Of a stretch of 64,000 bases of DNA, positions 5,615 to 33,847 are shown piece by piece (the first letter of the stretch is position 1; every line of letters begins with the position of its first letter). Both the position numbers and the translations under genes were made by a program. Below the pieces are notes generated by a model that was not told the origin of the DNA, did not search any database, and was given only the letters and a program-made list of their open reading frames with translations. Location: the NCBI GenBank assembly GCA_963678815.1, contig OY787460.1, positions 6,394,861 through 6,458,860 on the forward strand. The letters are read 5' to 3'. The stretch is from Victivallales bacterium (GTDB taxonomy: Bacteria > Verrucomicrobiota > Lentisphaeria > Victivallales > G963678815).

Positions 5615-5641
5615 AATTACCTTTGGGGTGTTAAGTTATTG

Positions 5642-8466: not shown

Positions 8467-8560
8467 CTGTATCTTTTGAAGTTAATCTTGACCTTAAAGT
8501 AAGAATTTTTTAATTAATTATCATCCCTTTGCGCCGACGTATATATGGTCTTTTGCTAGT

Positions 8561-8749
8561 GTCGTGTTTCACTAAGAACCTTGATAATGCGTGAGCTATT
8601 TTTACCGTTTCAGTTGTGCTCGCGGCTGCAAGGTGATGCAAACCCATCTCTGCCAGCCGCGAGCGTGACTGAACGGAAAAAGAGTCACGCCGCAAGGCGG
8701 TTGCGCCCTTTCGCAGCAACATTATCCAAGGTTATTGGTGAAACACGAC
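8561..8749. ncRNA. Intercistronic GC-rich nested-hairpin element (structured RNA or ERIC/MITE-like palindromic unit); family not recognised
   Basis: Closing inverted repeat: GTCGTGTTTCAC TAAGAACCTTGATAATG (8561-8589) pairs with CATTATCCAAGGTTATTG GTGAAACACGAC (8720-8749). Inside are an 11-bp stem GCTCGCGGCTG/CAGCCGCGAGC, GTGACT/AGTCAC, and CGCC-GCAA-GGCG (a GNRA loop on the + strand). It begins 1 nt after the stop of the 8751-9989 gene. Confidence 0.35.
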
Positions 8750-8750
8750 A

Positions 8751-9989
8751 TTAGACTGTTGCAAGTTCATGCAGGCTGTGCGGGTAATATATGGAAGGGA
8801 ATTGGCGGTATTCGTTTAAGTTCACTTCCAGCCCTTCCCGACTCCACGGAACATTTCCGAGTTCTGAGGGTAACGCATTCTGGTTGAAGCACCGGAACAA
8901 TACCTCTTGCAATGATCGTATCCAGGTTGTTTTATCGCCTTTTGCGTCAACGCTTAGTTCGATAAATTCTTCGGGAAAGGATACTATTTCCGGCATTGAT
9001 TCGTGTGCTCCATTCAGGCACAAAGTCTGGGAACTAGCAGCTTTTACTCCGCAAACGGCTTTTCTTCCGTTTTTTACGGCTTCAACACAATCTTTAAATT
9101 TTTTCAACTTATTATCGTTCGGACTCCCATAATTAATTATTTTTCCATTTTTTAATTTCGCGGAAATCTGCGTACGGTCATAATAGATATGTGCATGCTC
9201 AAATTTGAATTCCCCGCATGGACCAATCACTGAGGGAACCGCATGGGAAGTATAAAACAATATATCGGTTTTGCATTCGGTCAGGCAATGAATGAAAGCA
9301 GTATCGAAATTTTCAATATCATTCGCCCGGTAAAGTTCCGCTGTAACTTTCAAAGGTTTTGCACTTGAAAAAATATCTTTACCGAGAATATAGAACATAT
9401 TGTGCAAATAATGGGCAGTGGCATTATTGACTGGACTGTCTAAAATCCAACGATTCAAAGACCTTATTTTACCTGCCCAATTATTACGGTTATAATACGA
9501 GAAAGCCCTCGGCCAGCTAATGAATGCTTTGAGCAACAACGGCTTGCCAAATATACCCTTGAGAATATCCCTCTTCAATTTCTGAATTGCATCAGAAAAA
9601 GACCATTGGTATCCAACAGCGAGAAAGCCGGGACACTTTTCCTCGGCTTTTATCAGTTTCAAGGCTTCCTGATATGTTGCGCACACTGGTTTCTCACAAA
9701 GTACGTTTGCTCCGTTTTTCAATGCTTTCATGGAAATGGGCGCATGCAGGTGAATCGGCGCTGAAATAACAACAAGATCCGCGGTTTCAGAGAGATAGAA
9801 ATCTTCCAGAGTATCAAATACCGGAATTCCTAATTCCTTCAGCTTCTGGTAATGGATGGAGTTTTTTGCATAGGGATCAATAATGCCTGAAAGGAGGATA
9901 TTTTTATTTAAATACTTGAATGCTTCTTTTAAATAAAAATCTCCATAGCCGCATATGCCAACCAGAGCAACTTTAACTTTATTATTCAT
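8751..9989 (-). CDS. Gfo/Idh/MocA family oxidoreductase
   Basis: KVKVALVGICGYGDFYLKEAF Rossmann motif and VLCEKPV motif. GAAGGA Shine-Dalgarno upstream of the ATG. Confidence 0.85.
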   Translation of the reverse strand: MNNKVKVALVGICGYGDFYLKEAFKYLNKNILLSGIIDPYAKNSIHYQKLKELGIPVFDTLEDFYLSETADLVVISAPIHLHAPISMKALKNGANVLCEKPVCATYQEALKLIKAEEKCPGFLAVGYQWSFSDAIQKLKRDILKGIFGKPLLLKAFISWPRAFSYYNRNNWAGKIRSLNRWILDSPVNNATAHYLHNMFYILGKDIFSSAKPLKVTAELYRANDIENFDTAFIHCLTECKTDILFYTSHAVPSVIGPCGEFKFEHAHIYYDRTQISAKLKNGKIINYGSPNDNKLKKFKDCVEAVKNGRKAVCGVKAASSQTLCLNGAHESMPEIVSFPEEFIELSVDAKGDKTTWIRSLQEVLFRCFNQNALPSELGNVPWSREGLEVNLNEYRQFPSIYYPHSLHELATV

Positions 9990-10008
9990 TTTAATCCTTC
10001 AATATTCA

Positions 10009-11781
10009 TTACCCGGCATATCCTTTTTTTACTTCGTGATATGCCGCTTTCGGCTTTAATTTATCCGTCAACAACCCTTTGCGGTTGAACCCTTTCTGGA
10101 AACGCGACAACTTGATGGGGGTTTCATAATCATTCAGGACGAATATCGCCATTCCCTGCAACGTTTTTTCCTGAGTCAGTATTTTAAATAATTCCTGGAG
10201 TTTCCTGTGATATACAAGCTGCCGCTCTTCTCCGAAATCATAACCTTTTTCTCCTAAAACCCCATCGATTCCCGCCTCCGCCAAAATCACCGGTTTTCCC
10301 CAGGATGACGCCTGCCGGATTTTATCATACTGCTTTGGAAATTCATCCTTTCTGCCCGGTTCCGCGCCATCATAAATTCCCCGGTAACTGTTAATGCTGA
10401 CTATATCCAATAGTTCGATCAAAGCTTCCGGGCAACTGTGCTTTAACGTTTCTTCTCCAGCGCCTTCAACACCACCGGTATAGGTTACTAACCGGCTTGG
10501 GTCGTTTTCACGGGCATAGCCAGCCGCCTCAATAAAGAAACCCAAGTTGGATTCTTCTTCATCCTGAAGAATTTTCAAGCACTCGTTTCCAATGCTCCAG
10601 ATAATAACCGAAGGTGAATTCCTATGCTCGCAAATCATGGCTTCAAGCATCTTAAGGGCTTTTCGGCTCCGGGCCGGTTTCTGCATCGTATAAATCCAAT
10701 AGGCTGGGACTTCCTGCCAAACAAGGATTCCGGTTTTATCACATGCTTTTATGAAATCCTTGCCCTGCGGACGGTGTCCCGCGCGCGCGAAATTGCAGTT
10801 GAGATCTTTAAGGATATCAATAGTTTTATTCGCACTTTCCGGGCCAAGGGAAAAAATTCCTCTTTCCGGATCTTCGATCCAGGTTGCTACTCCTTTTAAT
10901 AAAATACTTTCGCCATTGAGTAGAATATCCTTGCCACGGATTTTGATTTCCCGCAAGCCAACTTCATCATGCCATACGTCACCGCTGCTCTGCATTTCAA
11001 TTTGAAGAAGATACAAATTCGGATTATCCGGAGACCAGAGTTTCACCTTATCCACATTCAGGGAAATAATACTTGAATACCAGGAACCTGGACGAGACTT
11101 AATTGTTTCATTTAAAACAGTTTCATTATTATCGGAAGAAATCAGTTTAACATCAACTTCTTTTAAATTGTCTCTACTCCCGGCTTCGGCCAGAACCTTT
11201 ATCTCAATCTCGACTTCATCATTAGTAATCCGGGTCGATACCGCAACGTCCCTTATATATTCCTTTGGACGGTAATACAATCTTACCGGACGAATTATTC
11301 CGCCATCGTGAAACCAATCATGAATAGTTCCCGGAACATCATCTTCATGCCTTGTGGCATCCACAAAAACCATGAGGCGGTTTTCCTCTTTCAGCTCCTT
11401 TGAAACCTCAAAAGTAAAAGGAATGCAGCCGCCTTCATGTTCGCCAATAAAAATTCCATTGAGGAAAACGCTGCACCGCTCATTTACGGCTTCAAAGTAA
11501 AGAAAAACCTTCTCATCCGTTCTGCTTAAACGAGCCGGAAACCTGTTGAGATAGACAACATTTCCCTCATAATATTTCAACTCCTTATGGAGACGGGTAA
11601 ATGCGCCGGGAACTGTTGTCGGCCAAAACGCGTCATCATCGTATGAGGGAAACCAGAAATTTTCTTTCCGGATTTTCTTCCACCATTCCTGTTTTCTCGA
11701 CCTGTTCATGGGATCAGGCAATAATCCCCAGCCATCTTTCAGTTCAATATTCTCTATTTGACCAAAATTGATTCTGTACAT
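10009..11781 (-). CDS. Glycoside hydrolase family 2 (beta-glucuronidase/beta-galactosidase-like), cytoplasmic
   Basis: Sugar-binding domain FLYFEAVNERCSVFLNGIFIGEHEGGCIPFTFEV. TIM barrel with NCNFARAGHRP, acid/base motif IIWSIGNE and nucleophile region PVILAEAG. At 590 aa it is of beta-glucuronidase-like length. No signal peptide. Confidence 0.85.
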   Translation of the reverse strand: MYRINFGQIENIELKDGWGLLPDPMNRSRKQEWWKKIRKENFWFPSYDDDAFWPTTVPGAFTRLHKELKYYEGNVVYLNRFPARLSRTDEKVFLYFEAVNERCSVFLNGIFIGEHEGGCIPFTFEVSKELKEENRLMVFVDATRHEDDVPGTIHDWFHDGGIIRPVRLYYRPKEYIRDVAVSTRITNDEVEIEIKVLAEAGSRDNLKEVDVKLISSDNNETVLNETIKSRPGSWYSSIISLNVDKVKLWSPDNPNLYLLQIEMQSSGDVWHDEVGLREIKIRGKDILLNGESILLKGVATWIEDPERGIFSLGPESANKTIDILKDLNCNFARAGHRPQGKDFIKACDKTGILVWQEVPAYWIYTMQKPARSRKALKMLEAMICEHRNSPSVIIWSIGNECLKILQDEEESNLGFFIEAAGYARENDPSRLVTYTGGVEGAGEETLKHSCPEALIELLDIVSINSYRGIYDGAEPGRKDEFPKQYDKIRQASSWGKPVILAEAGIDGVLGEKGYDFGEERQLVYHRKLQELFKILTQEKTLQGMAIFVLNDYETPIKLSRFQKGFNRKGLLTDKLKPKAAYHEVKKGYAG

Positions 11782-11800
11782 TATTATTCTACTTTATTCA

Positions 11801-14026
11801 TTATTTCTGATTGTCATACAATATCTTCAAAGAAGGGTTCGCTATAGTAAAATTGTTAATTGAGGACATACTAATTGATAATACAGTTGGATACGGCATA
11901 TTACTGTCTTTAAAAAATTCAGGGGATATTGAGAATTTATAACTGTAATGCTGCCATTGTCCGTTTCCTTTCGCGGCATTTCCCCTGAATTCTCCCGTTC
12001 TGGTCCATCTTGAAGTTCCGTATGTATTCAGGCCATAGCCGCTCTTTTCTTTGCCAGTTCTGATGCTAACATGGGTTATGGTGACTTTTACGGAATCACC
12101 TTTTGCCGCATTGTAATCAAACTCCAATTTCAAAGGAATTTTCTGCTTTGAAGGATTTTCAAAATCCATAAATAAAAATGGTTTCAAGTTTAGAACATAT
12201 TTCGCCGGAATTTCAATTGCGGAGTTATCTTTTGTAACAGGATTCGTAGTTCTTTTCAGGTCTTCAATTGTAATTTTACCTTTATTCCCCCTGATTCTCC
12301 ACGGTGTGCGCTTCCCGGCAATAATGAAACCTGGATCGGAAACAAGGTTTTTTTCCTGCGCCTTCTCTTCTTTATTAAGTTCAGCAAAAGAATTCCTTAA
12401 ATAGGAATATATCAGATTGCCATCATTTTTTTTCTGTTCTGACATTGTAATATTATCGATTGCTTTTTCACCCTTTGCATTCTTAAGCTGCCAAAGATAC
12501 AAACTCCTGGGAATTGCCGGAATGCCGTAAGATATCCAGTTCCCGAAACGTGCCCGTGTAGGAGATGACCTTTTAGAACCGATGCAACCGACAGCCCAGT
12601 TGGTGTCACCGGTTTCGGGCATATCGCAAACTATCTGGGCGGCGCGGCAGTTCCAGAGAATGTGGTTAACTCCCTGCCAGGCATGACTTCCCGTACCATT
12701 TCTTAAGTCAATATTTCTTTGTGGAGCCATCACATTATCATAAAGATATCCGGTACACCATTTCATGTGGGGGCCTACTGCGTCAAACCCCTTTTCAATA
12801 AGACAGTCCAAAAAAACATTCGGTCCTGCCGCCGCTGAACTGGATACAAATGCATGGCGCGCATTATACGCATAGCACCTCTGGACAAGCACCTTTGATC
12901 CATTTACCATAAAGGCGTATCTTCTGCCGCCTCTAATCCTTGAAACCGGACGCAGGCAGGCACAGTCCTGTACTGTTATGTTTCGGGCTCCGTGCTCAAC
13001 TTCCACCGCTGACAGAAAAAAATGCAGCGCGGTCATGTTTTTTACCCAGCAGTTTTTTGCTTTATCTACATAAACGGCGCTGCGCGCATGTTCTTCCGGA
13101 TTTTTGTAATTTTCCGGATTTTTGTAATTCTTTTCCGAGAAATAACTAACCAGTCGAATATTTTCTACACCACTTTGGGAAATTCTGTTATCATTGTTTA
13201 TTTTGTAAACGACAGCTTTTTTAATAGTATCTTTATCAATATAAAAAAGCATTGGAGCATCAAGGGTTAGCTTATTGCCGTTTATTTTCATTATTTTTCT
13301 TTCACAGTAAAACCTTCCGGTGATGCCTCTCCATTTTTTCTCAAGATTAAGCTTTTTGAGCCAATTTTTGTTAGGAATAATCTGAATTCTGATCTCATCC
13401 CCAACAGACAACTTGTCAGCGTTTCCGATTGTGACGGTTTTAGTTCCGACCGGAATATTTTTATCAGTCAAAACACCAATTTCATCCAAGCTTGAATAAA
13501 ATGCCCTGGTAGGTTTTTCCGGATTTACATTTCCAAGGTAAATAAGCGAATGCTGCCTGTAACCTCTGCCATAATTATTTTTAACTTTTAAATTTTTCTT
13601 TGTGTCAATAACCGTTGTGCCGTTTGAAAACTGTCCTTCTCCACGCAACACAACTCCGCCTTTACCGATTACAAGATATCCCGCAACCCGATATGTTCCT
13701 GCTTTCAGGAGTAACGCTCCGCGTAAGCCATCCTTGTCCGGTTTCATCTTTCCGATTTTATCAAGCGCAGCCTGGATGCGTTCACGGTCATCACCGTTTT
13801 TTTGAGGCGAAAGAACAATCTTCACCGGCACTTCCGGTAACTTCACGCCTCCCCCTTTATATCCAACGCTGGAAAAATCGGGAATAACATTTCCGGCTTT
13901 GTCCGGAATGCTGATAATATCTGTAATATCTTTCGGCTTCGCGGATTTAAGAGGTTTTGAATCAGCGGCATTGATTATTGAACCACTAAGTAAAAATATA
14001 ACGATGAGATGCTTTATTAAGTTCAT
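11801..14026 (-). CDS. Secreted right-handed beta-helix (pectate-lyase-superfamily-like) protein with C-terminal beta-sandwich
   Basis: Signal peptide MNLIKHLIVIFLLSGSIINAADS. Entry motif DFSSVGYKGGGVKLPE...RIQAALDKIG...GALLLKAGTYRVAGYLVIGKGGVVLRGEG. The specific enzymatic activity cannot be read from the sequence. Confidence 0.6.
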   Translation of the reverse strand: MNLIKHLIVIFLLSGSIINAADSKPLKSAKPKDITDIISIPDKAGNVIPDFSSVGYKGGGVKLPEVPVKIVLSPQKNGDDRERIQAALDKIGKMKPDKDGLRGALLLKAGTYRVAGYLVIGKGGVVLRGEGQFSNGTTVIDTKKNLKVKNNYGRGYRQHSLIYLGNVNPEKPTRAFYSSLDEIGVLTDKNIPVGTKTVTIGNADKLSVGDEIRIQIIPNKNWLKKLNLEKKWRGITGRFYCERKIMKINGNKLTLDAPMLFYIDKDTIKKAVVYKINNDNRISQSGVENIRLVSYFSEKNYKNPENYKNPEEHARSAVYVDKAKNCWVKNMTALHFFLSAVEVEHGARNITVQDCACLRPVSRIRGGRRYAFMVNGSKVLVQRCYAYNARHAFVSSSAAAGPNVFLDCLIEKGFDAVGPHMKWCTGYLYDNVMAPQRNIDLRNGTGSHAWQGVNHILWNCRAAQIVCDMPETGDTNWAVGCIGSKRSSPTRARFGNWISYGIPAIPRSLYLWQLKNAKGEKAIDNITMSEQKKNDGNLIYSYLRNSFAELNKEEKAQEKNLVSDPGFIIAGKRTPWRIRGNKGKITIEDLKRTTNPVTKDNSAIEIPAKYVLNLKPFLFMDFENPSKQKIPLKLEFDYNAAKGDSVKVTITHVSIRTGKEKSGYGLNTYGTSRWTRTGEFRGNAAKGNGQWQHYSYKFSISPEFFKDSNMPYPTVLSISMSSINNFTIANPSLKILYDNQK
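13094..13129. repeat. Perfect 18-bp x2 tandem duplication inside the beta-helix CDS
   Basis: TTCCGGATTTTTGTAATT occurs twice back to back. On the coding strand it encodes NYKNPE-NYKNPE. Confidence 0.9.
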
Positions 14027-14043
14027 TCTTTTTTATTCCTTTT

Positions 14044-15447
14044 TTATTTTTTACCAGTTAAAAATTCCTTTTCATTATATACATGATTTTGATAGCCTGG
14101 ATCGTGCTCAGGCTGTTTAGCATCAACCTTCAGCTCATAGAAATGATCGCTTGTTTTCTCAACATGTTCAGACAGCAAAGTTCTATGTTGTTTCAGCACC
14201 TCCAGGTATTCCGGATTTTCAGCAAGATTTTTAGTTTCTCCGGGATCGTTTTCTATGTCATAAAGCTCTTCTCCGTCATTTTCCAGAAACCTTGTATATT
14301 TAAATTTATTTGTTCGAATCATACGTCCGGGAGCTACCGGCCCAAACTCGGATCCCTGCCGCCATTCCGTCAGTAAATATTCGTGAATCTGACCACTGTC
14401 TTTGTTCTGGCAAATTCCCGCAAGACTTTTTCCGGACAAACCATCCGGAGCGGAAATTCCAGCGAAATCACATAATGTGGGAAACAAGTCCAGGAGTGAA
14501 ACTAATTGCTTGCGCTTTCCGCCCGCGAACCCGGCAGGCAAAGCTCCCGCGAAAACCATAGGAACTTTTGCCGCTTCTTCATAGAAATTGCCATGAGTGC
14601 TGACAAGGCGATGAGAACACATACCATTGCCATGATCCGCCATCAGAACAATAATGGTATTATCATTTTCCGGACTGGATTTTAAGGCATCGATCACCAT
14701 TCCGATATGCCGGTCCACGACTTCAACATAGTGGCAATATGCCGCCAGATAATGTTGATAATTTTCCCTGCTCCATTTTGCGGCTTGAGCAAGCCGGCGG
14801 TTCCGGCAGCACAAACGCTGTATGGAATCAGCCCGGTTGTCAAAGTCCTCTATTTCAAAGTTGCCGGGCAAAGACGGCAAATCTTTGTTCAAAGGCAAGT
14901 TATCGTGAGGCCCGATATTGTCATCCATCCAGGGAAGAACATCATGCGGATTGAAGAAATCGGCAACACACAGGAATGGTTTTTCGTGTTCTTCTTTCAG
15001 GAATCCGGCACAAAGCTCAGCGGTCCGGCGATCCATGAAAGTACCGTAATAGTCATTCCACGGCGCTTCCTCCCCGGGCGTCACAATCCTGGTCTTATTT
15101 GAATTCCGGCAATTAAAATCTCTCAATGCATGCGCATCATGCCTTTTACCAATATGTTCAGTTTGGTATCCGGCCTTTTTGAATACTTCTCCGAGAGTCG
15201 TTATCCCCTGATCAATTTCCAATGTTCCGGAGTTCCATTCTACGCCAATTTCATGTGGATATCTGCCAGTCCAGAATGAAGACCGTGAAGGCACGCATAG
15301 CGGATAATTGCAGTACGCATTTGAAAAGGAAATCCCGCTTTCAGCAAGATTATTAATATTCGGAGCATTGACATAATCATTATTAATCATCTTTGGCGAA
15401 AGATGATCAGAGATAACAATTAAAATATTCGGTTTTTTTTCTGACAT
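14044..15447 (-). CDS. Sulfatase (Cys-type), no signal peptide
   Basis: MSEKKPNILIVISDH...YPLCVPSRSSFWTGRYP. I prefer the ATG at 15447 (AAGGAAG upstream, no overlap with the GNAT gene) over the track start at 15504. Confidence 0.9.
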   Translation of the reverse strand: MSEKKPNILIVISDHLSPKMINNDYVNAPNINNLAESGISFSNAYCNYPLCVPSRSSFWTGRYPHEIGVEWNSGTLEIDQGITTLGEVFKKAGYQTEHIGKRHDAHALRDFNCRNSNKTRIVTPGEEAPWNDYYGTFMDRRTAELCAGFLKEEHEKPFLCVADFFNPHDVLPWMDDNIGPHDNLPLNKDLPSLPGNFEIEDFDNRADSIQRLCCRNRRLAQAAKWSRENYQHYLAAYCHYVEVVDRHIGMVIDALKSSPENDNTIIVLMADHGNGMCSHRLVSTHGNFYEEAAKVPMVFAGALPAGFAGGKRKQLVSLLDLFPTLCDFAGISAPDGLSGKSLAGICQNKDSGQIHEYLLTEWRQGSEFGPVAPGRMIRTNKFKYTRFLENDGEELYDIENDPGETKNLAENPEYLEVLKQHRTLLSEHVEKTSDHFYELKVDAKQPEHDPGYQNHVYNEKEFLTGKK

Positions 15448-15475
15448 TCTGTTGTCTTCCTTATAATTGTGTTTT

Positions 15476-16327
15476 TCATCCCACTTCCGGGCCGGCAATA
15501 GCATAAATTATTTCCGGTTTACCTGGGAATTTATTTTCACCGCGAAACATGCGGGTAAGTTTTCTTTGATATTTAAATCGATATTTATTCAGTATATTTT
15601 CGGCATTAACATTTGATAACGCATCCATATAGACCGTCTCCCCATATAATTCGTCAAGAACCTTTTTCAGCAGCGCTTCAGCCGCGAAATTACTGTCCGC
15701 CACCCATGGCCCTATATACCATGCCCTTGATCCGGGACGCACAAATATGTATCCTTTCAGATCGTTTTCATCTTCAGAAAATGCATAAGCCTTCCCTGTA
15801 TCCTGAATACTTTCCAGCAGCTCCATCCTGTCTGCGCCAAAACCACGCAAATCATATCGTGCTAAACTATCCGGGGGTAATCCTCCTAAATCAACGATAC
15901 TTTCCGGTGGCATATCTATTTTGGGAGTAACAACTTGCCAGCGATTCAAAATATATTCATCCTGAAATCCAAGTTTAACATAAACAGGTTTGCCCATCGG
16001 AGTTGCATCGAGTTTAATACTTGTCACTTTCTGTTCATCCAGATATTCAAGGCATTTTTTCATTAATCCGCCGCCTACGCCTTTTCCTCTCAGGTCAGGA
16101 TGAACAAGCACCATACCTATCCAGGCAACTTTATTCCGGTAATTAATGGTTGTGGCAGTACCTGCCGGCTTTCCATCGAAAATCGCAAGGAAACATCCAT
16201 TCGGAGCAATTTCAATATATCTTTTCCAGTCATCAACAGTTTGATTCCAACCTGCGATGTTCACCAATTCCATGGCAAAATCCAAATATTGTTCATTTAA
16301 TATTTTAAATTTCAATTGCGATTTCAT
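15476..16327 (-). CDS. GNAT family N-acetyltransferase (two-domain)
   Basis: Acetyl-CoA motif A: VLVHPDLRGKGVGGGLMKKCLEY. The ATG overlaps the stop of the upstream MttB-like gene (ATGA at 16324-16327). Confidence 0.8.
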   Translation of the reverse strand: MKSQLKFKILNEQYLDFAMELVNIAGWNQTVDDWKRYIEIAPNGCFLAIFDGKPAGTATTINYRNKVAWIGMVLVHPDLRGKGVGGGLMKKCLEYLDEQKVTSIKLDATPMGKPVYVKLGFQDEYILNRWQVVTPKIDMPPESIVDLGGLPPDSLARYDLRGFGADRMELLESIQDTGKAYAFSEDENDLKGYIFVRPGSRAWYIGPWVADSNFAAEALLKKVLDELYGETVYMDALSNVNAENILNKYRFKYQRKLTRMFRGENKFPGKPEIIYAIAGPEVG

Positions 16328-17703
16328 TTTAAATTCATCTTTGCAAAATAATGCTGTTCAATTTTTAGAAGTTCTTTAATTTGCTCCGGCTTTAAAACCG
16401 GCTCCGGATATTCTTTCAGCAGGTTCGCCACTTTCTCTTTAGCCTTATCATTCAGTGACTTCGCGCCTGAATTCCGCCATAATTCCCGCGATTGCCTGCA
16501 TAATATTTCAGGCTCGAAATTTTCCCGAAAGTGCCTGAAGGTATGTTCGCATCCCAGAAATTCGCCGCCAATTCCAATTTCACGGACAACATTCAGGGCC
16601 AGTGTTTCCGGGTTTATTTCAAATCCCCGTTTAAAACGTTTTGCGTAAGCGATCAATTCGTTGTCGATCACGGCCTGCTCCATCGAAAGCGCCATTTCCG
16701 ATTCCAGCTGCCCGGCGCCCCATATCAAATTGACGCCGCCTTCAATATGGGAATGAAAACCGAACATTTTCTCCGCTATGGCTTGCCCGTCCGGGATCAT
16801 TGCCTCCGTGGAAACCCAGGAACAGGAAGGCAAATTGTAGAACCTTCCCATTGCGGCGGACGCTTGCGCCATCAAGGAATTTTCCGGACCGCCGGTAACG
16901 GCAATCATACTTTTCATATCCATAACATGCGCCAATCCAAGATTGTAGACACAAGGGCGTTCTGGTTCAAGAATCTGATTGATTACCAATCCTGCAAGGA
17001 TTTCGGCGTTCCCGACAGCAATACTTCCGGCCAGAGTCACCGGCCCGGAAGCTCCGGCCATGGGTTCGCCATTGACGGTAACGGGGATTCCCTGTCCGGC
17101 GGAAGCGGCAAATATTTCCAGGGCCAGATTTGTCCAGCGCAATGGGCCATGAGCGGTGAACCCCATTGAAAACCATGGACTGTCACTCACTACTTTTTTC
17201 ATTTCGATCAATGCTTCACATCCTGTTTTTGTGCAGGAAAGGACCCGTAAATGTTTACGCGTATTATTTGCCATGACACGTAATCCCACAAAATCCCGGG
17301 CGCCCGGTGGCACGTCATCCATGGAAACCCCAAATACTCCGTCAACATGTTCAAGGTGTTCCATCAGAAAGGAAAATTTTCCCATATCCTCCATACTAAA
17401 AGGTCTTGTTTGATTGTCTTCCACTATTCTAAGGGCGGGGGTGCTCCAGAATAATGGTTCGGATCGAGATGTCAACATCCTGGAACTTCCCGAGCGATCT
17501 GAAAAAACAACTTCAGAAGGACAGAGCTTCAAGTATTCCTCGATCATGTTTTGTTCAAGCCGGACTACCTCCGCCGCATTTCCAGGTTTCGCGCCGTTTT
17601 TCATCAACATATCGAGGATTATTGAATGCTCGATTTTGATTCCGGGATTTTCCAGAAGCGCAAGGGACGTCCGGTGAATTTCTTCACATTGTTTCTGATT
17701 CAT
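16324..17703 (-). CDS. MttB-superfamily (trimethylamine methyltransferase-like) protein, non-pyrrolysine
   Basis: N-terminus QCEEIHRTSLALLENPGIKIEHSIILDMLMKNGAK, central GASGPVTLAGSIAVGNAEILAGLVINQIL, and a length of ~460 aa all fit the family. The reading frame is uninterrupted, so there is no in-frame TAG. Confidence 0.75.
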   Translation of the reverse strand: MNQKQCEEIHRTSLALLENPGIKIEHSIILDMLMKNGAKPGNAAEVVRLEQNMIEEYLKLCPSEVVFSDRSGSSRMLTSRSEPLFWSTPALRIVEDNQTRPFSMEDMGKFSFLMEHLEHVDGVFGVSMDDVPPGARDFVGLRVMANNTRKHLRVLSCTKTGCEALIEMKKVVSDSPWFSMGFTAHGPLRWTNLALEIFAASAGQGIPVTVNGEPMAGASGPVTLAGSIAVGNAEILAGLVINQILEPERPCVYNLGLAHVMDMKSMIAVTGGPENSLMAQASAAMGRFYNLPSCSWVSTEAMIPDGQAIAEKMFGFHSHIEGGVNLIWGAGQLESEMALSMEQAVIDNELIAYAKRFKRGFEINPETLALNVVREIGIGGEFLGCEHTFRHFRENFEPEILCRQSRELWRNSGAKSLNDKAKEKVANLLKEYPEPVLKPEQIKELLKIEQHYFAKMNLK

Positions 17704-17741
17704 TTTTTTTACTGTTTTCAGGTAAGTATATTCAATATCCG

Positions 17742-18512
17742 TTACGGAACATCCGTATGGATAAAACCCCAGGCACTATCTCTGACTGCCTCAAGATAAG
17801 GTATGCTTTCCACATGATAATCCAGAAACAGAACATTTTCAGCGTTATTGTGGCGAAACGTTGAATCCTGTTCAGGTCTTCCATACATGCCATTGGAACT
17901 GCCTCCAAACAAAATCATCTGGTCACATTCATACAACAACGGCAAATTCGACATATTCTTGCCGCTTCCGGTAATGAGGTCCGGATTGTCTATGAGCATG
18001 ACCGGGGCCCAAAGATCGAGACAGCCAATTACTTGGTTTTGCATATAAGTCCGGTTCTTTATGACGTTGTCGGGCGCGGGAGTGGCAGGACACCAAAAGA
18101 CGGTATTTGGCTTTTCCTGAGTATCATCATTGGCCTCCATACCTATATATGAACATATCTGTGCATCCCAGCAATTGAATGCAGGGGTTTTCGTTGATTT
18201 TGTGTATGCAGGATACCGCCCATTATACTCCTGGGTATACAGCGAGTATGCCAGTCCAAGTTGTTTCATGTTATTAACGCATGTCGATTGCAACGCAACC
18301 TCCCTTGCTTTTTTTAAAGCCGGAAGCAGCATAGCGGCTAATATAGAAATTATCGCTATCACCACAAGTAACTCGATTAAAGTAAACGATATAAACCGGC
18401 GGCAACCCCGGTTTGCCGTTCCAGCAGGCACAACGTTACTCTCTGTCCGTACAAGGCCGGGAACCTTGCGGCCCGAGACCGTTCCGAAATGTTTTTTTCC
18501 ATCACCGTACAT
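17742..18512 (-). CDS. Prepilin-type N-terminal domain protein, DUF1559-like, with 46-aa leader
   Basis: ...[38 protein letters not shown]-terminal [14 protein letters not shown] is a degenerate H-X9-DG (DG replaced by DY). GGAGGA Shine-Dalgarno precedes the ATG at 18512. Confidence 0.85.
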
Positions 18513-18585
18513 ACGTCATCCTCCGTTTTGTTTTATTTTATACTTGTGAATATCCGCCGTTTTAGCTTTATTTGAATATGCATAA

Positions 18586-19872
18586 TCAATACTCAAATGA
18601 TTTTATTTTTTCCCTTACGCCGACGCCTTCCAATGCGCCGGGACAAATCTGTTTATTCACGCACATGGCAGCGGCAATGCCTGCTGCCGTTCCGGTAAAC
18701 ATACAGGTGGGTTGCCCTCGCAAGGACGCCAGCGCCCCGCGGTCGGAAGAAATGCACCGTCCCGCTACGAGAATTCCCCTGGTATGCTTTGGAACCAGGC
18801 ACCGGTACGGAATTTCATACCAGTCACCTTCTTCAGGCCGGTTTGCCCGGATATACTCCAACGAATACGGAATGGTTGTACCCGGCGGAGAATCATGAAA
18901 ATCTATCCAGAAGTTGGCTTCAGCAACGCCGTCGTCGAATTTTTTCGCGTTCAGAACGTCCTCCCCGGTTAGAATGTAATGACCGGCAATGCGGCGGGAC
19001 TCCCGGGTTCCCAGCAATTCATGGAAACGTGATATCCGCATATTTTCGTGTCCGGGAAGGTGCTTCCGGCAAAACCTTAACAACCTGATTGCGGCAATTT
19101 GACAGTCAAGCAGAGTGTTGCTTACCTGTTCGGCTTCGGAACAGTCCACCCCTTCGACTTCCCATTGCCTGAATATGGGCTGATCATCCTTGATGGGAAA
19201 CGTTTCGGCGGGAGGGCTGAAAATTCCGTTTGGCACACTTAACTCGCCGCTTTTCCGCCCATCCTTGAATAATTGCCGCAATTTCTCCGCGCCGTATAAT
19301 TTACACAAAGATTGAATATCGACATTCTCAACATCCATCCTGAAATTCACATGCTGCAAGCGTTTATCCTCCGGGTCACCCTTCATGAATTCCGCCCCGG
19401 CATCCACTGCCAATTGCCCGTCAGCGGTGGCGTCGACAACCACGCTGGAACGGATCAGTTTTCTTCCGTTTTTATTGGCGGAATAAATACCTCGCGCCTG
19501 ATTCCCCGATTGATAGACTGATTCCGCAACCGTTCCATAAAGGATTTCACAGCCAAGCTCATGCAGTTTTTCGGCGACAATCGCTTTAAATGCCTCCTGA
19601 TCAAAACGCAACCGTCCCGGTTCATGGAACCGTTGCTTATTTTCAATTACCTCCGCAAAGCCGTCCCTGAGCATGATTTTTTTCAGATAGCTGCCGAAAG
19701 GCCCAAGCCTGGTATCAACCCAGCACGAAACCCGGCAACCGGTCCCCATGCCGCCCAGGGAATTACAGTATTCCACCAATAGCGTTTTCGCGCCACTGTA
19801 CGCGGAAGCCGCGGCTGCCCCGATTCCCGCCGGACCGCCGCCACACACTATGACATCATACTCTTTTGACAT
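18586..19872 (-). CDS. FAD-dependent oxidoreductase (GIDA/FAD_oxidored-like)
   Basis: YDVIVCGGGPAGIGAAAASAYSGAKTLLVE dinucleotide fold, DATADGQLA, and C-terminal GRCISSD...TGTAAGIAAA. I prefer the ATG at 19872 (MSKEYD...), 2 nt after the regulator's stop. Confidence 0.8.
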   Translation of the reverse strand: MSKEYDVIVCGGGPAGIGAAAASAYSGAKTLLVEYCNSLGGMGTGCRVSCWVDTRLGPFGSYLKKIMLRDGFAEVIENKQRFHEPGRLRFDQEAFKAIVAEKLHELGCEILYGTVAESVYQSGNQARGIYSANKNGRKLIRSSVVVDATADGQLAVDAGAEFMKGDPEDKRLQHVNFRMDVENVDIQSLCKLYGAEKLRQLFKDGRKSGELSVPNGIFSPPAETFPIKDDQPIFRQWEVEGVDCSEAEQVSNTLLDCQIAAIRLLRFCRKHLPGHENMRISRFHELLGTRESRRIAGHYILTGEDVLNAKKFDDGVAEANFWIDFHDSPPGTTIPYSLEYIRANRPEEGDWYEIPYRCLVPKHTRGILVAGRCISSDRGALASLRGQPTCMFTGTAAGIAAAMCVNKQICPGALEGVGVREKIKSFEY

Positions 19873-19874
19873 TT

Positions 19875-21257
19875 TTATATCACTTCTTCCCACTTTAAAT
19901 GCTGTTCAAAACTGTCATGGATGCTTGATGTTATGTCCGATTGGAGTTTTTGCGCAAAATCTTCCGGGCTGATCATTTCGGACCACAGCAGAGGAGTCAG
20001 TGCCTGGATCTGATCAAAAATCTCAAATTGGTGCGAATTCCGCATGCTTATTCTGGAATTTGGCAATTCTTTGATAAATTTCCATTTTATTGATTTTTGG
20101 GGAATTACGCTTTTCCTTATGGGAATTCCGCAATTATCCTGTTCCAGTTTCATCTGGTATTCAGCTGAAATTACCGTTTTAATAAAATCCACTGCAAGTT
20201 TTTCATGTTTTGTTTCTTTATTAATGCCAAATCCTGTAGCAAGTAAACCTGAAGGATACTTTCCCGGCCCCGGAACGGGAATGACATCAAAAGGGAAATT
20301 TGCTGAATCGATAAATCGAGGCAGAGTATAGCAACAATCCAAAAGCATTGCGACCTTGCCTTCACAAAAGAGTTTTATGACTTGTGACACCGGAGACGGT
20401 GATATTTTTGCTGAAGTCACATAATCACGGAAAAACTTCAGCGCTTTAACCGTTTCAGGAGAATCCAACTTGCATTTACCATTGTCGTCAAGAATGGAAC
20501 CGCCTTTCTTTGTAATCAAAACCGGCCAGCGGTTTTTATGGTCGCGAAATGCAAAACCGTACTGGTTTATTCCCGGGACGGTCAACTGCTTCGCAAGAAT
20601 GGAAAATTCTTTCCAGCTTAGATTTTTTCCGGGAATGGAAACTCCGCTTTTCCGGTAAATATCCTTGTTGCAAAAAATCATCACTGGAGAGAAAAGACAA
20701 GGAACGGCATACCGCCGGTTATCTCTTACATACGGGGAGTCAGGCAAGCGAATAATATCATCATTAAAAAATGCTGATTCATATTCGGAAATATCCTTTA
20801 ACAATTGATGCTGGAGTAAAGCGTCAAGGGTATTTCCATAGGTTAAAATGACGTCGAACTTTTTATTTTTCGGTCCATTTTCCGTTTCCATTCCAAAGTT
20901 GTATTCAAATTCCCGTAAAGAAAAATAAGTATAATCTACTTTTACCTGAGGGTGGGTTTTCTCAAATAAACCGGTGAGTTTCTCCATATCCATTTTAGGA
21001 TTGTGGGCAAGATATACGGAGAGCTTTGTCCTTTGCGACTCGCTTACATACGTGCCACGGTTCAAATCCCGGAACAATACCCCTTCAGCAACAAGACTCG
21101 ACAGAATTTTATTGATAGTAAGGCGGCTGATATGGTATTTTTCGGATAAAACCCTCTCCGACGGGATTTTATCGCCAGGTTTGTATATTCCGTCCCTGAT
21201 TTGTTTTTTCAGAAATTTGGTGAATTTTTCCGTTGTTGTAACTCGATCAAAACGCAT
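19875..21257 (-). CDS. Transcriptional regulator: GntR-type winged HTH fused to an ABC-type (MalE-like, family 1) solute-binding-protein fold
   Basis: N-terminus IRDGIYKPGDKIPSERVLSEKYHISRLTINKILSSLVAEGVL (GntR HTH). The remaining ~380 aa follow the SBP pattern (YAVPCLFSPVMIFCNKDIYRKSGVSIPGKNLSWKEF...LFCEGKVAML). Confidence 0.8.
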   Translation of the reverse strand: MRFDRVTTTEKFTKFLKKQIRDGIYKPGDKIPSERVLSEKYHISRLTINKILSSLVAEGVLFRDLNRGTYVSESQRTKLSVYLAHNPKMDMEKLTGLFEKTHPQVKVDYTYFSLREFEYNFGMETENGPKNKKFDVILTYGNTLDALLQHQLLKDISEYESAFFNDDIIRLPDSPYVRDNRRYAVPCLFSPVMIFCNKDIYRKSGVSIPGKNLSWKEFSILAKQLTVPGINQYGFAFRDHKNRWPVLITKKGGSILDDNGKCKLDSPETVKALKFFRDYVTSAKISPSPVSQVIKLFCEGKVAMLLDCCYTLPRFIDSANFPFDVIPVPGPGKYPSGLLATGFGINKETKHEKLAVDFIKTVISAEYQMKLEQDNCGIPIRKSVIPQKSIKWKFIKELPNSRISMRNSHQFEIFDQIQALTPLLWSEMISPEDFAQKLQSDITSSIHDSFEQHLKWEEVI

Positions 21258-21288
21258 CTTATTATTCCTATGGCTATTCCTGGATTAT

Positions 21289-21330
21289 TGGTTTAACCAT
21301 CATTATATCTTATATCCCGGAAATTGTCAA
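21289..21330 (-). promoter_or_regulatory. Promoter-operator cassette 1 upstream of the GntR-SBP regulator
   Basis: Minus strand reads TATTGACAATT (-35 TTGACA = 21330-21325), 17 nt, TATAAT (21307-21302), then GATGGTTAAACCAATAATCC (palindrome TGGTT-N-AACCA, 21289-21299). Confidence 0.6.
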
Positions 21331-21402
21331 TAGCTTAATATTTATCCATAACCCCGCAACTGAAATGGAATATATTTACAGTTCAGCCCTTTTTTGGATT
21401 AA

Positions 21403-21444
21403 TGGTTTAACCACTATTGTAACCTGAAAACATTAAATTGTCAA
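21403..21444 (-). promoter_or_regulatory. Promoter-operator cassette 2 (tandem duplicate, 114 bp upstream of cassette 1)
   Basis: Minus strand reads TATTGACAATT (21444-21439), 17 nt, TACAAT (21421-21416), then AGTGGTTAAACCATTAATCC (21403-21413). Confidence 0.55.
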
Positions 21445-21521
21445 TAGCTTTCGTAAAATTTTGCCAGGAAAATATATTTATTTCATCTTATACCGGTTTA
21501 CGATCTAAAAGCAATTCGGTA

Positions 21522-23009
21522 TTACTCATACCAGACAGGGCTGATCCATGCGGTTTGACCATCAGTCTGGACGGCCCTGGCATATATAAATCCCTTTTCC
21601 TCCGATGGCTTGAACAATCCATCATACGTGAATCTGAATTCTCTTTCGGGAATTGCGCGATGGATTTTTACCGCCGGGGAACAAAAACCTGAAACAGCCT
21701 GTCCGATAGAGCCTTTTATAAGCTCACTTACATTTTCTTTCATCCGGACATTGTCAACTTGCAATTCAAGTTCAGTGCGATGCGTTGCTTCAAGTTCCAG
21801 AACCACTGCCTGAGTTCCGCCGGCCGCGAAATGAGTTCCGCCGATAAGTCCCGCGGGATTGGGCTTTGTCCGGCACTGCCAATGGATCCGGCTTTTTTCC
21901 ACATGCAGCTTTTCACTTGACTGTTCTTCACTCATATCATAAGAACTGAATCGATAATAAGGCGTAACATCAATCAAGTTTCCATTTTTCACATTTATAT
22001 CAAAATCCCAATCCTTGATAATTCCCTTGCTTCCCCAACCGCATTCGATTTTTATCTTATATTTTCCCGGCACAAATTCCGTTGATATTATTTTCGTAGG
22101 TAATCCGTGAACTTTGCAATTATCCCCGGATCCTTCAATTAATTCAACCCTTTCCAGTGGCGCCGTTCCAGTCAATTCAATCATTAAATTCATTTCAGGT
22201 TCCGAGCAAACCGTTTCTCCAATAAAACAATCATTCAGATAAAACCTAGCATCAAAACGTGCCCCGGTGGAAGCAATAGTACGCCGGTTCCACATGCCAT
22301 CCCAGATATGTTTTCTATCGAGTTTATCAGCAATTACGCCAAAACGTCCATGCCCGTAATGTCCGGGATATCCGTCATGGGTGTCAGTTGATGCATAAAA
22401 ACCGAATTTATTGCCCCTTAAAAGCCCAGACCTGACTGAAGTTGCCTTTACCCTTGGTCCCATTGTATGGTAATAATCGTAATATGAATCATCGCTTTCA
22501 CCGCAGCCGTGATTGGAAAATATTTCTACCAAAGGAGATACTTTATTATTGAATTTTTTCCAGCTTGTTCCGCGGAAACCTTGAAGATACGAACAGTGAT
22601 GCGGAAGCAGCATCGGGCATGATTTTTCAGTTCTTTTGATTAATTCCGGCAATGTCGGGGCATCCAGGAGGGGAAGACTGCCGGATGCGGAATAAACATT
22701 ATAATCGCCATACTCCATGGAGTGCCATTCGTAACTCGGAAACGTAACAAATGATCCCGCCTTATCAGCATCATTTATATCATTTAAAAGGTCTTCCCAG
22801 AAATGCTTTAATTTTTCGAATCCTCCAAAATGAGTAATAAGTACTTCATTCTGGGTTTTGATGTCCATAGGCATGTCCGGCCAGAAAGCGTGTCCGGTAA
22901 TACTGCAGAAATCAAGGTGCGGCCTGGCGTTGTCAAGCGCTCGTTTCGGGGTCCCGAACCCGTAACTTACGGCACAATGACTGTGGATGTCCCCCCAATA
23001 AGTATTCAT
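21522..23009 (-). CDS. PHP-superfamily metal-dependent hydrolase-like protein (DUF3604 / CehA-McbA-like), cytoplasmic
   Basis: MNTYWGDIHSHCAVSYGFG...CSITGHAF (His-rich PHP-type N-terminus), a C-terminal beta-sandwich, and the terminal motif QTAWISPVWYE. The ATG overlaps the upstream stop (ATGA at 23006-23009). Confidence 0.6.
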   Translation of the reverse strand: MNTYWGDIHSHCAVSYGFGTPKRALDNARPHLDFCSITGHAFWPDMPMDIKTQNEVLITHFGGFEKLKHFWEDLLNDINDADKAGSFVTFPSYEWHSMEYGDYNVYSASGSLPLLDAPTLPELIKRTEKSCPMLLPHHCSYLQGFRGTSWKKFNNKVSPLVEIFSNHGCGESDDSYYDYYHTMGPRVKATSVRSGLLRGNKFGFYASTDTHDGYPGHYGHGRFGVIADKLDRKHIWDGMWNRRTIASTGARFDARFYLNDCFIGETVCSEPEMNLMIELTGTAPLERVELIEGSGDNCKVHGLPTKIISTEFVPGKYKIKIECGWGSKGIIKDWDFDINVKNGNLIDVTPYYRFSSYDMSEEQSSEKLHVEKSRIHWQCRTKPNPAGLIGGTHFAAGGTQAVVLELEATHRTELELQVDNVRMKENVSELIKGSIGQAVSGFCSPAVKIHRAIPEREFRFTYDGLFKPSEEKGFIYARAVQTDGQTAWISPVWYE

Positions 23010-31759: not shown

Positions 31760-32569
31760 TTAAATATTGTTACATAAGTAAGCCCCATCTATTGGCATTG
31801 TCGCGCCGCTGACAAAACTTGCGCCATCAGCACATAAAAATATGGCTGGAGCACAAAGTTCCCCGGGATTGCCAAAACGATTGAACGGAGTATGGGCCAA
31901 AATATTTTTTCCTCTCTCTGTAAGAGTCCCGTCTTCATTTTTAAGCAGCCGCTTGTTTTGTTTGCCGATAAAAAATCCGGGAGCTATTGCGTTTACGCGT
32001 ATTCCGTAATCCGCCAACTCCCTGGCTTGGGCCATCGTTTGATTTACTACCGCGGCTTTTGCCGCGGAATATGCCCAGCCCCCGGATAGAGGATTGTATG
32101 AAGCCATGGAAGCAATGTTAAGTATGGTTCCCTGGATATCGTTTTTTATCCAATAAGCGGCAATTCTTTTAGTTGGCATAAAACATCCCGCAAGCAAATT
32201 AAGCTTGACGATTTCTTCAAATTCTTCGACGTCAGCGTCCACCAATGGACACCTGACACTGCTGCCGCCAACACCATTTACCAATATGTCCAACTTGCCC
32301 ATGCATGATATTGTTTTTTCCAATGCCAGGTCTATCTGACTTTCATAAAGCAAATTTGCTTCGACCGGGTAAATGTTTGATACATCGCATCCTTTTCTAC
32401 ATAAATCTTTTTGCTTATCGGTGAGGGTTTTAATGTTCCTTCCCCATAAAGCGACCTTTGCTCCCGCTTTCAGGAAACCTTCGGCGATAGCGCCGCAAAG
32501 AGTTCCGCCCCCACCCGTTATGACGGCATTTTTTCCTTTGAGTGAAAAATGTTTTTCAATATACGGCAT
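31760..32569 (-). CDS. Short-chain dehydrogenase/reductase (KduD/gluconate-5-dehydrogenase-like)
   Basis: KNAVITGGGGTLCGAIAEGF cofactor loop, catalytic YSAAKAAV, and IRVNAIAPGFF. Confidence 0.9.
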   Translation of the reverse strand: MPYIEKHFSLKGKNAVITGGGGTLCGAIAEGFLKAGAKVALWGRNIKTLTDKQKDLCRKGCDVSNIYPVEANLLYESQIDLALEKTISCMGKLDILVNGVGGSSVRCPLVDADVEEFEEIVKLNLLAGCFMPTKRIAAYWIKNDIQGTILNIASMASYNPLSGGWAYSAAKAAVVNQTMAQARELADYGIRVNAIAPGFFIGKQNKRLLKNEDGTLTERGKNILAHTPFNRFGNPGELCAPAIFLCADGASFVSGATMPIDGAYLCNNI

Positions 32570-32571
32570 AA

Positions 32572-33666
32572 TTATTTTTCCTTCAGGTTGGGTAAATTGA
32601 ATTCATTGGCTATCGTTTTCAGATTCGCATAAGTTGTTTTTGAAACAGGAATACCGTTTTTTCCCGCCTGCTCTTTAAATTCAAATTCTTTCTGTCCGGC
32701 AAACCAAACTTGTCCGCAACCTTCCGCCACGGGGGTTTTCCTTAACCGTTGCAGCATTTCATCCATATCATTTCTGAAATTCTCCGGGTTTCTGAACCGG
32801 TCAATTTTCACGGCGCCGAAAAAATGGCTGACCCTGGCAGACGAATTCGCCGTATCACATATATCTGAACCAAAAGGGGCGCCGCACAATACCGCGCAGA
32901 GAATATCAACCATGACGGCCAATCCGTAACCTTTGTAACCGCCGTATCTTTCCCCCTCCCCTCCCAATGGAAGAATGCCACCTCCATATCGGTGAAACAT
33001 ATCACTCAGGATTCCGGTCGCGTCTTTCGCGGATTTGCCCGTTTTGTCAACGGCCCAATTAAGCGGCAATTCCTTTTTTTCCCGTTCGTAAACTTCTATT
33101 TTCCCTCGCGATACAACTGTTGTCGACATATCCAGGACAAAAGCTTTTTCATGATTTGCCGGCGCGCAGAAAGCCAACGGATTAGTGCCGAACATAACTT
33201 GTCTCCCAAAAGTCGGCACTCCTAAAGCCGCCGTGTTTGTCATTGCAATTCCCAGCATATCATGATTGAGCGGCATCATTGCGTAATATCCCGCAATGCC
33301 AAAATGATTCGAATTTTTCACACATCCGAATGCGGCCCCGCTTTTTTCAGCCTTCTTTATCACTTCCCGCATGGTTTTAATGCTTACCGGAGCGCCCATT
33401 CCGCCATTTGCATCAACAACAATTGATGAATCAGTATCCTTCAAAACAAAACTTTTGGCGTCAGCCAGCATTTGCCCGGTCTGCAAGCCGTTGATATAGC
33501 GCTTCAAACGGCCTACTCCATGTGATGCAATCCCCCGGATGTCCGCTTCAACCAGAACCTCCGCGGCATGCCCTGCGTCAGCACTTGATAATTTCATTTT
33601 CCGGAAAGCTCTTTCGCAAAATTCTTTTAACTCTCCGCAATTGATATAAACACAATTATTTTTCAT
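32572..33666 (-). CDS. Ldh_2 family (malate/L-lactate/sulfolactate/diketogulonate-type) dehydrogenase
   Basis: EADIRGIASHGVGRLKRYINGLQTG and SNHFGIAGYYA are characteristic of the Ldh_2 family. Substrate cannot be assigned from sequence. Confidence 0.8.
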   Translation of the reverse strand: MKNNCVYINCGELKEFCERAFRKMKLSSADAGHAAEVLVEADIRGIASHGVGRLKRYINGLQTGQMLADAKSFVLKDTDSSIVVDANGGMGAPVSIKTMREVIKKAEKSGAAFGCVKNSNHFGIAGYYAMMPLNHDMLGIAMTNTAALGVPTFGRQVMFGTNPLAFCAPANHEKAFVLDMSTTVVSRGKIEVYEREKKELPLNWAVDKTGKSAKDATGILSDMFHRYGGGILPLGGEGERYGGYKGYGLAVMVDILCAVLCGAPFGSDICDTANSSARVSHFFGAVKIDRFRNPENFRNDMDEMLQRLRKTPVAEGCGQVWFAGQKEFEFKEQAGKNGIPVSKTTYANLKTIANEFNLPNLKEK

Positions 33667-33804: not shown

Positions 33805-33847
33805 ATGGTTTAACCATTACCATACGCGCTGTTTTCAGAATTGTCAA
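33805..33847 (-). promoter_or_regulatory. Promoter-operator cassette 3 (same design as 21289-21444) upstream of the Ldh_2-SDR pair
   Basis: Minus strand reads TATTGACAATT (-35 = 33847-33842), 17 nt, TATGGT (33824-33819), then AATGGTTAAACCAT (33805-33817). Confidence 0.55.

Follow-up and report, generated by a model that had tools for sequence, protein, structure and literature searches.

A GntR-type regulator with a MalE-like solute-binding effector domain and its predicted operators in a putative sulfated-glycan locus of a Victivallales bacterium

The regulator joins a GntR helix-turn-helix to a family-1 solute-binding fold

We analysed a 64-kb window of DNA (64,000 nucleotides; contig OY787460.1 of assembly GCA_963678815.1, positions 6,394,861 to 6,458,860) from a Victivallales bacterium, in which a gene on the minus strand (19875..21257; coordinates are those of the window) encodes a 460-residue regulator with an ATG start. 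The N-terminal part of this protein is a GntR winged helix-turn-helix (HTH; residues 16-71, 21045..21212 (-)) that matched Pfam PF00392 (score 53.7 bits, cut-off 27; E 1.7e-14). The remainder, about residues 75-455 (19893..21035 (-)), is an effector domain with the type II, MalE-like fold of a solute-binding protein (SBP). Here Pfam matched SBP_bac_1 (PF01547; residues 96-369, E 3e-24) and also SBP_bac_8 (PF13416), and a phmmer search of the PDB aligned residues 75-376 with the cycloalternan-binding protein Lmo0181 (5f7v; 4.3e-22), with weaker matches of the effector part to AbnE, GacH, MalE3 and E. coli MalE. In the same search residues 14-76 resembled the HutC-type repressor YvoA/NagR (7e-10). 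The best NCBIfam matches were HutC-type models restricted to about residues 10-80 (TIGR02018, 1.3e-15, below cut-off), and every NCBIfam model fell short of its cut-off on the regulator.

AlphaFold gave a predicted local distance difference test score (pLDDT) of 38 from the single sequence and a mean pLDDT of 88.7 when supplied with a 23-sequence family alignment (A1). The resulting model has three helices followed by two strands at residues 8-71, and its C-terminal part is an alpha/beta structure of two lobes. When the model was compared with the PDB by Foldseek, 5f7v was again the best match (E 3.6e-28, TM(target) 0.82 on the template modelling scale, 393 aligned columns), followed by TMBP, MalE3, AbnE and GacH. 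Family-1 SBPs of the carbohydrate type made up nearly all of the top 50 matches, TM(target) reaching 0.83 at most, and the identity of the effector domain to solved SBPs was 14-21%. Pfam, the PDB sequence search and AlphaFold/Foldseek concur with the original prediction, made from the nucleotide sequence, and together confirm that the regulator consists of a GntR HTH directly followed by a MalE-like solute-binding fold of family 1.

The same prediction had set this effector apart from the usual FadR-, HutC-, MocR- and AraR-type domains, and none of those domains was matched. On the regulator Pfam gave no match to FCD (PF07729, at E<=0.01), to UTRA (PF07702), to Aminotran_1_2, to the LacI/GalR-type (type I) Peripla_BP domains or to LysR, and MocR-like NCBIfam models covered the HTH only. 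At about 380-385 residues, the C-terminal part is not the short YtrA-type domain of about 50 residues and two helices. Because the HTH occupies the N-terminus, a signal peptide or lipobox is impossible and the protein is not exportable; on inspection, no hydrophobic leader was visible at the N-terminus. Pfam found no ABC-transporter components (BPD_transp_1, ABC_tran) among the scanned genes of the window. Given the lack of an export signal and of any ABC permease or ATPase gene in that scan, the protein is a cytoplasmic regulator and no part of a transporter.

Three promoter-operator cassettes share one layout

Upstream of the regulator gene are two promoter-operator cassettes spaced 114 bp from each other, start to start and centre to centre, as had been proposed. 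The distal cassette, C1 (21395..21446 (-)), holds promoter P1 and a putative operator. It begins with the 11-mer TATTGACAATT (21446..21436), within which lies the -35 hexamer TTGACA (21444..21439), and continues with a -10 hexamer TACAAT (21421..21416), the palindrome TGGTTAAACCA (21413..21403) and a tail, TTAATCCA (21402..21395). The proximal cassette, C2 (21281..21332 (-)), holds promoter P2 and is built from the same parts: TATTGACAATT (21332..21322) with TTGACA (21330..21325), TATAAT (21307..21302), TGGTTAAACCA (21299..21289) and the tail ATAATCCA (21288..21281). Between the end of its palindrome and the ATG of the regulator are 31 nt. Each cassette is about 52 bp long, not the ~45 bp first assigned, and the end originally drawn at 21444 cut 2 nt off C1. 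The spacing of 17 nt holds between the -35 and -10 hexamers; from the 11-mer to the -10 it is 14 nt.

The cassettes had been described as a feature of the regulator's upstream region alone, and a third was overlooked. A search of the whole window for the signature words found C3 (33798..33849 (-)) between a sulfatase gene and the gene of an Ldh_2-family dehydrogenase (32572..33666). C3 comprises TATTGACAATT (33849..33839), a -10 hexamer TATGGT (33824..33819), the palindrome TGGTTAAACCA (33816..33806) and the tail TATAACCA. All three cassettes follow the layout TTGACA-17-TAxxxT-2-TGGTTAAACCA, with a tail of the form (T/A)(T/A)(A/T)A(T/A)CCA. P2 matches the sigma-70-like consensus at 12/12 positions and P1 at 11/12, each with a 17-nt spacer, and these are the two best matches between 3000 and 22000. 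The 64 kb contain three exact copies of the 11-mer palindrome, all of them intergenic, in one orientation and 2 nt past a -10. Allowing up to two mismatches added one intergenic site in the window (904-914, two mismatches), which lies away from the promoter cassettes. Relative to the predicted transcription start the palindrome spans about -5 to +6.

Comparison of C1 with C2 showed identity in 12/12 positions of the -35 block, 11/11 of the palindrome and 7/8 of the tail, with 5/14 in the spacer and 20/56 in the remaining 56 nt of the 114-bp unit. The spacers are unrelated, and a recent block duplication is therefore not indicated. The pattern would fit either the retention of both copies by selection or the assembly of the module twice. 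No target-site duplications or extended repeats were found around the cassettes, whose likeness stops at 56 nt. We also considered an attenuator or other RNA element between P1 and the ATG, and rejected it: the leader folds no better than shuffled sequences (z = -0.02), and there was no Rfam match in the window.

The -35 elements of the cassettes lie inside a second odd palindrome, ATTGNCAAT, as first noted. It is present in the sequence but is not specific to the cassettes, the same 9-mer occurring at 30751-30759 in the promoter region of an AraC gene, which carries no GntR-type palindrome. We therefore ruled out ATTGNCAAT as a cassette-specific second operator of the regulator; it is more likely to be promoter context or the site of a different, shared factor.

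The palindrome is conserved upstream of related regulators

DNA around related regulators was collected with a contig scan based on a 3-sequence alignment, which returned two loci, and with a metagenome scan, which returned L008 and L009. No search patterns could be built from the 23-sequence alignment because of its divergence, and a contig scan with the single protein gave no match. The metagenomic locus L008 encodes a protein 53% identical to the regulator over its full length and carries a single cassette, TATTGACAA-17-TATAAT-7-TGGTTAAACCA, whose palindrome is followed by the ATG after 31 nt. The regulators of L002 (36% identity) and L001 (31%) are paralogues in one metagenome-assembled genome of the Verrucomicrobiia and are preceded by GTGGCATAGCCAC and GTGGTTTAGCCAC, respectively, each immediately before the start codon and each with another (A/G)CCAC half-site behind it. 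In L003 (33%), GTGGCCTAGCCAC lies just past a TATAAT ahead of the regulator gene. Thus TGGY-N3-RCCA stands at the equivalent place in three relatives of 31-36% identity. By chance TGGYNNNRCCA should turn up roughly every 13 kb, and by our own estimate its presence within about 100 bp upstream in all four close relatives is very unlikely to be accidental. More distant regulators (25-27% identity) have other palindromes near their promoters, namely GGTATACC-GC-GGTATAC in L004 (385-425) and ATAGTTAACTAT in L006 (3585-3600), which suggests that each clade of these proteins may have its own recognition code.

The published consensus for GntR operators is NyGTNxACNy (PMC4494728). TGGTTAAACCA matches this consensus and has a GT-N3-AC core. 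The proposal that the palindrome follows GntR half-site logic at the predicted +1 gains support from this match, from the identical sequence in L008 and from TGGY-N3-RCCA in L001-L003. Within the HTH, the close clade shows no variation at the DNA-contact positions S33, E34, R35, R45, T47, K50, G68 and T69. The wing reads RDLNRGT or RNSNKGT in the TGGTTAAACCA group versus RK(Q/L/H)G(Q/C)GT in the TGGY-NTA-GCCA group, in a small sample. In that sample, the pattern of HTH and wing residues is what would be expected of a regulator that reads TGGTTAAACCA.

Genes downstream of the cassettes

The regulator heads a run of 13 same-strand genes extending from 21257 down to 3635, with gaps of at most 73 bp apart from one of 284 bp (8467-8750); the number of genes and the size of the largest gap are both as originally counted. 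A simple scan found no terminator-like sites in the intergenic gaps, and a single 13-gene operon is plausible from the gene spacing. The 12 genes after the regulator (3635..19893 (-)) were assigned from open reading frames, gaps and Pfam. They encode, in order, a PF12831 FAD oxidoreductase, a DUF1559/N-methyl pseudopilin-like protein, an MTTB-like protein and a GNAT acetyltransferase (genes 2-5), a sulfatase, a 741-residue protein without a Pfam match and a GH2 glycosidase (genes 6-8), and two GFO/IDH/MocA proteins, a second sulfatase and two further GFO/IDH/MocA proteins (genes 9-13).

The listed GTG start of the FAD oxidoreductase gene (19893) overlaps the stop of the regulator gene by 19 nt, and an ATG at 19871 lies 3 nt past that stop. 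The ATG is more likely to be the start, and the arrangement suggests translational coupling with the regulator. The gap at 8467-8750 holds a near-perfect hairpin of about 190 nt (8561-8749 (-)) with a minimum free energy of -103.6 kcal/mol (z = -8 relative to shuffled sequences). The hairpin has no U-tract, no Rfam match and no second copy in the window; it may act in RNA processing or stability, bind a protein or be a foldback element.

Downstream of C3 lie the Ldh_2-family dehydrogenase gene (32572..33666 (-)) and a gene for a short-chain dehydrogenase/reductase (SDR) related to mannonate/KduD-type oxidoreductases (31760..32569 (-)), both assigned from Pfam, with NCBIfam matches below curated cut-offs. 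The pair spans 31760..33666 (-), about 12 kb from the regulator. Because C3 precedes this pair, the system looks like a small regulon, not autoregulation alone.

Elsewhere in the window Pfam identified more sulfatases, a heparinase II/III-like lyase, GH38 and GH65-like proteins, DUF6259 proteins and an SSF transporter, and the regulators beyond the one studied here are three of the AraC type and one AraR-type GntR protein. A glycyl-radical enzyme (PFL-like + Gly_radical; 60614-62947 (+)) is encoded behind an AraC regulator and indicates an anaerobic lifestyle. The window as a whole looks like the sulfated-glycan utilisation region of an anaerobe. Homologues of the regulator in Verrucomicrobiia, Paenibacillus and metagenomes likewise lie inside sulfatase, glycoside-hydrolase and DUF1559 clusters. 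Their neighbours, locus by locus, include heparinase-like and GFO proteins; a rhamnosidase and a sulfatase; GH42 and DUF1559; a sulfatase and a BNR protein (Paenibacillus koleovorans); and URO-D and GH123 (a Verrucomicrobiia-type contig).

GntR-SBP proteins are common in databases and bear transport names

An exhaustive HMMER search returned 9,861 relatives of the regulator at E<=1e-3. Both an HTH and an SBP domain are present in at least 100 of the 150 best-ranking representative clusters (50% identity level), with a median length of 465 residues, and clusters with the GntR + SBP architecture occur in Verrucomicrobiia and Paenibacillus. Members of the proposed GntR-SBP family are defined here as single chains of about 450-490 residues with a short linker and the motifs FSPVVxFYNK and NRWPVFxLQNGG. 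The regulator aligns with the family over its full length, its own versions of the motifs being FSPVMIFCNK and NRWPVLITKKGG. In a word-indexed homologue search the query alone was matched; with the family profile one other GntR + SBP_bac_1 protein was recovered (P0017), the remaining matches being one plain SBP and HutC-type regulators. At least one paralogous GntR-SBP regulator, P0013 (454 residues, 26% identity), is encoded on the same contig outside the window, so the family is multi-copy in this organism.

Despite the N-terminal GntR HTH, all of the names borne by members of the family refer to solute binding or transport (nine of 20 clusters looked up were named; names were checked on entries P0002, P0005-P0009, P0015, P0025, P0152 and P0182). 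They read, in NCBI and IMG, 'extracellular solute-binding protein', 'transporter substrate-binding protein' and sugar or glycerol-3-phosphate 'transport system substrate-binding protein'. In the literature searched we came across no account of a regulator of the GntR + SBP_bac_1 type, which is not proof that none exists, and neither GntR nor any transcription-factor fusion comes up in a review of the signalling roles of solute-binding proteins. DevA is counted among the GntR subfamilies. The accepted classes are otherwise FadR, HutC, MocR and YtrA, plus AraR and PlmA (PMC4494728). A family-1 SBP effector is absent from FadR, HutC, MocR, YtrA, AraR, PlmA and DevA. On this evidence the family-1 SBP is an effector domain not earlier described for GntR regulators, serving here in what is probably an autoregulated, one-component sugar sensor.

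A model of sugar-released repression and its alternatives

Building on the domain architecture and fold of the regulator, the existence and layout of the three cassettes and the conservation of the palindrome in relatives, we consider it probable that the protein is an autoregulated, sugar-released repressor that acts on three promoters through TGGTTAAACCA. In this model the regulator would be a cytoplasmic one-component protein whose MalE-like effector fold was recruited from the binding proteins of ABC transporters. A dimer would bind the 11-bp TGGTTAAACCA through its GT-N3-AC core and cover the predicted transcription start, repressing both P1 and P2, and with them the regulator gene together with the 12 glycan- and sulfatase-related genes that follow, as well as the C3 promoter ahead of the Ldh_2 and SDR genes. 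The ligand would be a sugar or oligosaccharide derived from the sulfated glycan of the region and held in the cleft between the lobes. Lobe closure would then move the two DNA-reading heads to another distance or angle from each other, and the DNA would be released. Because the palindrome covers the predicted start and P1 and P2 are near consensus, occlusion is the simplest way to read the repression. The 114 bp between C1 and C2 correspond to about 10.9 helical turns, so that the two operators would be almost in phase on the double helix and might be bound cooperatively or through a loop, in the manner of AraR or LacI.

Several observations weigh against this model. Family-1 SBPs are normally monomers, whereas the model calls for a dimer on the palindrome. 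The conserved tail TAAYCCA is asymmetric and provides a third CCA half-site 8 bp past the CCA of the palindrome, suggesting that the site may be more complex than a simple dimer operator. The upstream gene (21522..23009) is on the same strand as the regulator and has no predicted terminator, so that read-through from it could add to expression. Finally, a tandem pair of operators was found in none of the relatives whose DNA was read, the four of the closest clade (L008, L001, L002 and L003) each having a single operator, and the second promoter may be dispensable.

This last point bears on whether both tandem cassettes are active. The claim of a tandem duplication stands for the pair at the regulator locus and does not extend to the relatives. 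Absence of the second copy from close relatives had been named in advance as refuting a duplication and is formally what was found, although the nearest of these relatives is only 53% identical. That all four have a single operator could mean that only one cassette is active here and the other is the leftover of an old local duplication. We regard this as doubtful, because both cassettes keep a perfect -35, a -10-like hexamer and the palindrome while the 14-nt spacer core and the flanks are near-random. Purifying selection on both cassettes would give such a pattern, with the elements kept and the spacer and flanks diverged.

An activator or dual regulator that uses the same protein and site, and that recruits or stabilises RNA polymerase with ligand bound, is unlikely. 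The unusually conserved -35 blocks (12/12) would suit such a role, and the poor -10 of C3 (TATGGT) could need activation, but P1 and P2, with their 11/12 and 12/12 sigma-70 matches, should not require an activator. The position of the palindrome at about -5 to +6 is the classical one for a repressor, and in L008 the palindrome lies still further past the -10.

The sugar-released repressor also presupposes that the solute-binding domain binds a ligand. That it instead serves as a dimerisation or scaffold domain, or senses a partner protein, seems distinctly improbable. The lack of ABC-transporter genes among the scanned genes of the window and the low identity to solved SBPs (14-21%) could be taken to favour it. 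The entire two-lobe fold is nevertheless retained with high model confidence, the motifs FSPVVxFYNK and NRWPVFxLQNGG are strongly conserved in the family, and the steady link to glycan-utilisation loci fits a substrate sensor.

Least credible is a cassette that belongs to a different transcription factor, or is a repeated or mobile promoter element, with the GntR-SBP gene a coincidental neighbour: the extended -35 ATTGACAAT does recur without the palindrome at the AraC promoter (30751-30759), and three AraC regulators and an AraR-type GntR protein are encoded in the window, but the palindrome tracks the GntR-SBP gene on unrelated contigs and shifts as the protein diverges, its GT-N3-AC core is of the GntR type, and the lack of target-site duplications or extended repeats, with likeness ending at 56 nt, speaks against a mobile element.

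Relation to known regulators and binding proteins

The proposed repressor is mechanistically within the familiar repressor-operator scheme, and its closest concept is AraR of B. subtilis. Both join a GntR winged HTH to a sugar-transport binding-protein fold, and AraR, too, represses glycan- and sugar-utilisation genes until a sugar releases it. AraR controls its own expression and works with operators arranged in in-phase pairs. The folds differ, that of AraR being type I (Peripla_BP_1/3) and that of the regulator type II and MalE-like (SBP_bac_1), with another topology and evolutionary origin; the regulator is the type II counterpart of AraR.

In sequence the HTH is nearest to HutC-type proteins (NagR/YvoA, DasR), and the half-sites TGGT/ACCA resemble the dre site of DasR/NagR, TGGTCTAGACCA. 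The regulator lacks the UTRA (chorismate-lyase-like) domain of that class. Most HutC sites have 4 nt between GT and AC (PMC4494728), whereas the palindrome described here has 3 nt. In this respect the TGGT-N3-ACCA core is closer to the FadR-type consensus GTM-N0-1-KAC (PMC4494728), whose GT-to-AC spacing it shares. Unlike FadR, the regulator has no all-helical FCD domain, and it scored 20 bits against a cut-off of 249 with the FadR equivalog model.

With the family-1 (cluster B) carbohydrate SBPs (Lmo0181, MalE, AbnE, GacH) the regulator shares the fold (TM(target) 0.75-0.83) and the Pfam families. It differs from them in having an HTH for an N-terminus, with no signal peptide or lipobox, and in the absence of an ABC permease or ATPase among the scanned window genes. 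LysR-type regulators combine a winged HTH with a type II periplasmic-binding-protein-like effector of about 200 residues, placed after a long linker helix. The regulator likewise pairs a winged HTH with a type II effector, but its HTH belongs to another family and its effector is far larger.

More broadly, we propose tentatively that GntR-SBP proteins are an unrecognised and sizeable GntR subfamily with an eighth effector type. They would be substrate sensors for sulfated and complex glycans in Paenibacillus and in the PVC group (Verrucomicrobiota, Kiritimatiellota, Lentisphaerota, Planctomycetota), mislabelled in databases, and in the present locus would govern a small regulon with two in-phase operators under cooperative or looped repression. 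To our knowledge, how PVC bacteria sense sulfated polysaccharides and induce their very large sets of sulfatases and glycosidases is largely unknown. A readable operator combined with a sugar-binding fold offers a direct route to this question, as regulons could be predicted from the palindrome and inducing oligosaccharides found by ligand screening of the soluble domain. Names taken from transport proteins inflate transporter counts and conceal regulators. For protein engineers, a MalE-like fold that nature has coupled to a DNA-binding head would also be a template for biosensors.

Other features of the window

In the window (17742-18512 (-)) and in three of the four closest relatives (L001, 7409-8149; L002, 9168-9914; L008, 5620-6294), a DUF1559/pseudopilin-like gene is found one or two genes away from the GntR-SBP regulator. 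In L003 such a gene (6162-6878) belongs to the regulator's cluster, so that the module recurs across these loci. The window holds four further DUF1559/pseudopilin-like genes (1126-1854, 2055-2831, 38480-39193 and 39523-40242).

MTTB-like and URO-D/MtaA-like genes are interspersed among the sulfatases (16324-17703 (-), 53061-54548 (+), 24258-25370 (-) and 35623-36726 (+)), and a URO-D gene also follows the homologous regulator in L011. Speculatively, these genes may serve the corrinoid-dependent demethylation of methylated sugars in an anaerobe. The classical AraR-type regulator of the window (GntR + Peripla_BP_3) is encoded at 58540-59640 (+). The promoter region of the AraC gene (30750-30815 (+)) contains the extended -35 that it shares with the cassettes, TATTGACAAT, and two copies of the direct repeat ATGGCATAAT, 13 nt apart and right before the ATG, which could be an AraC-type site.

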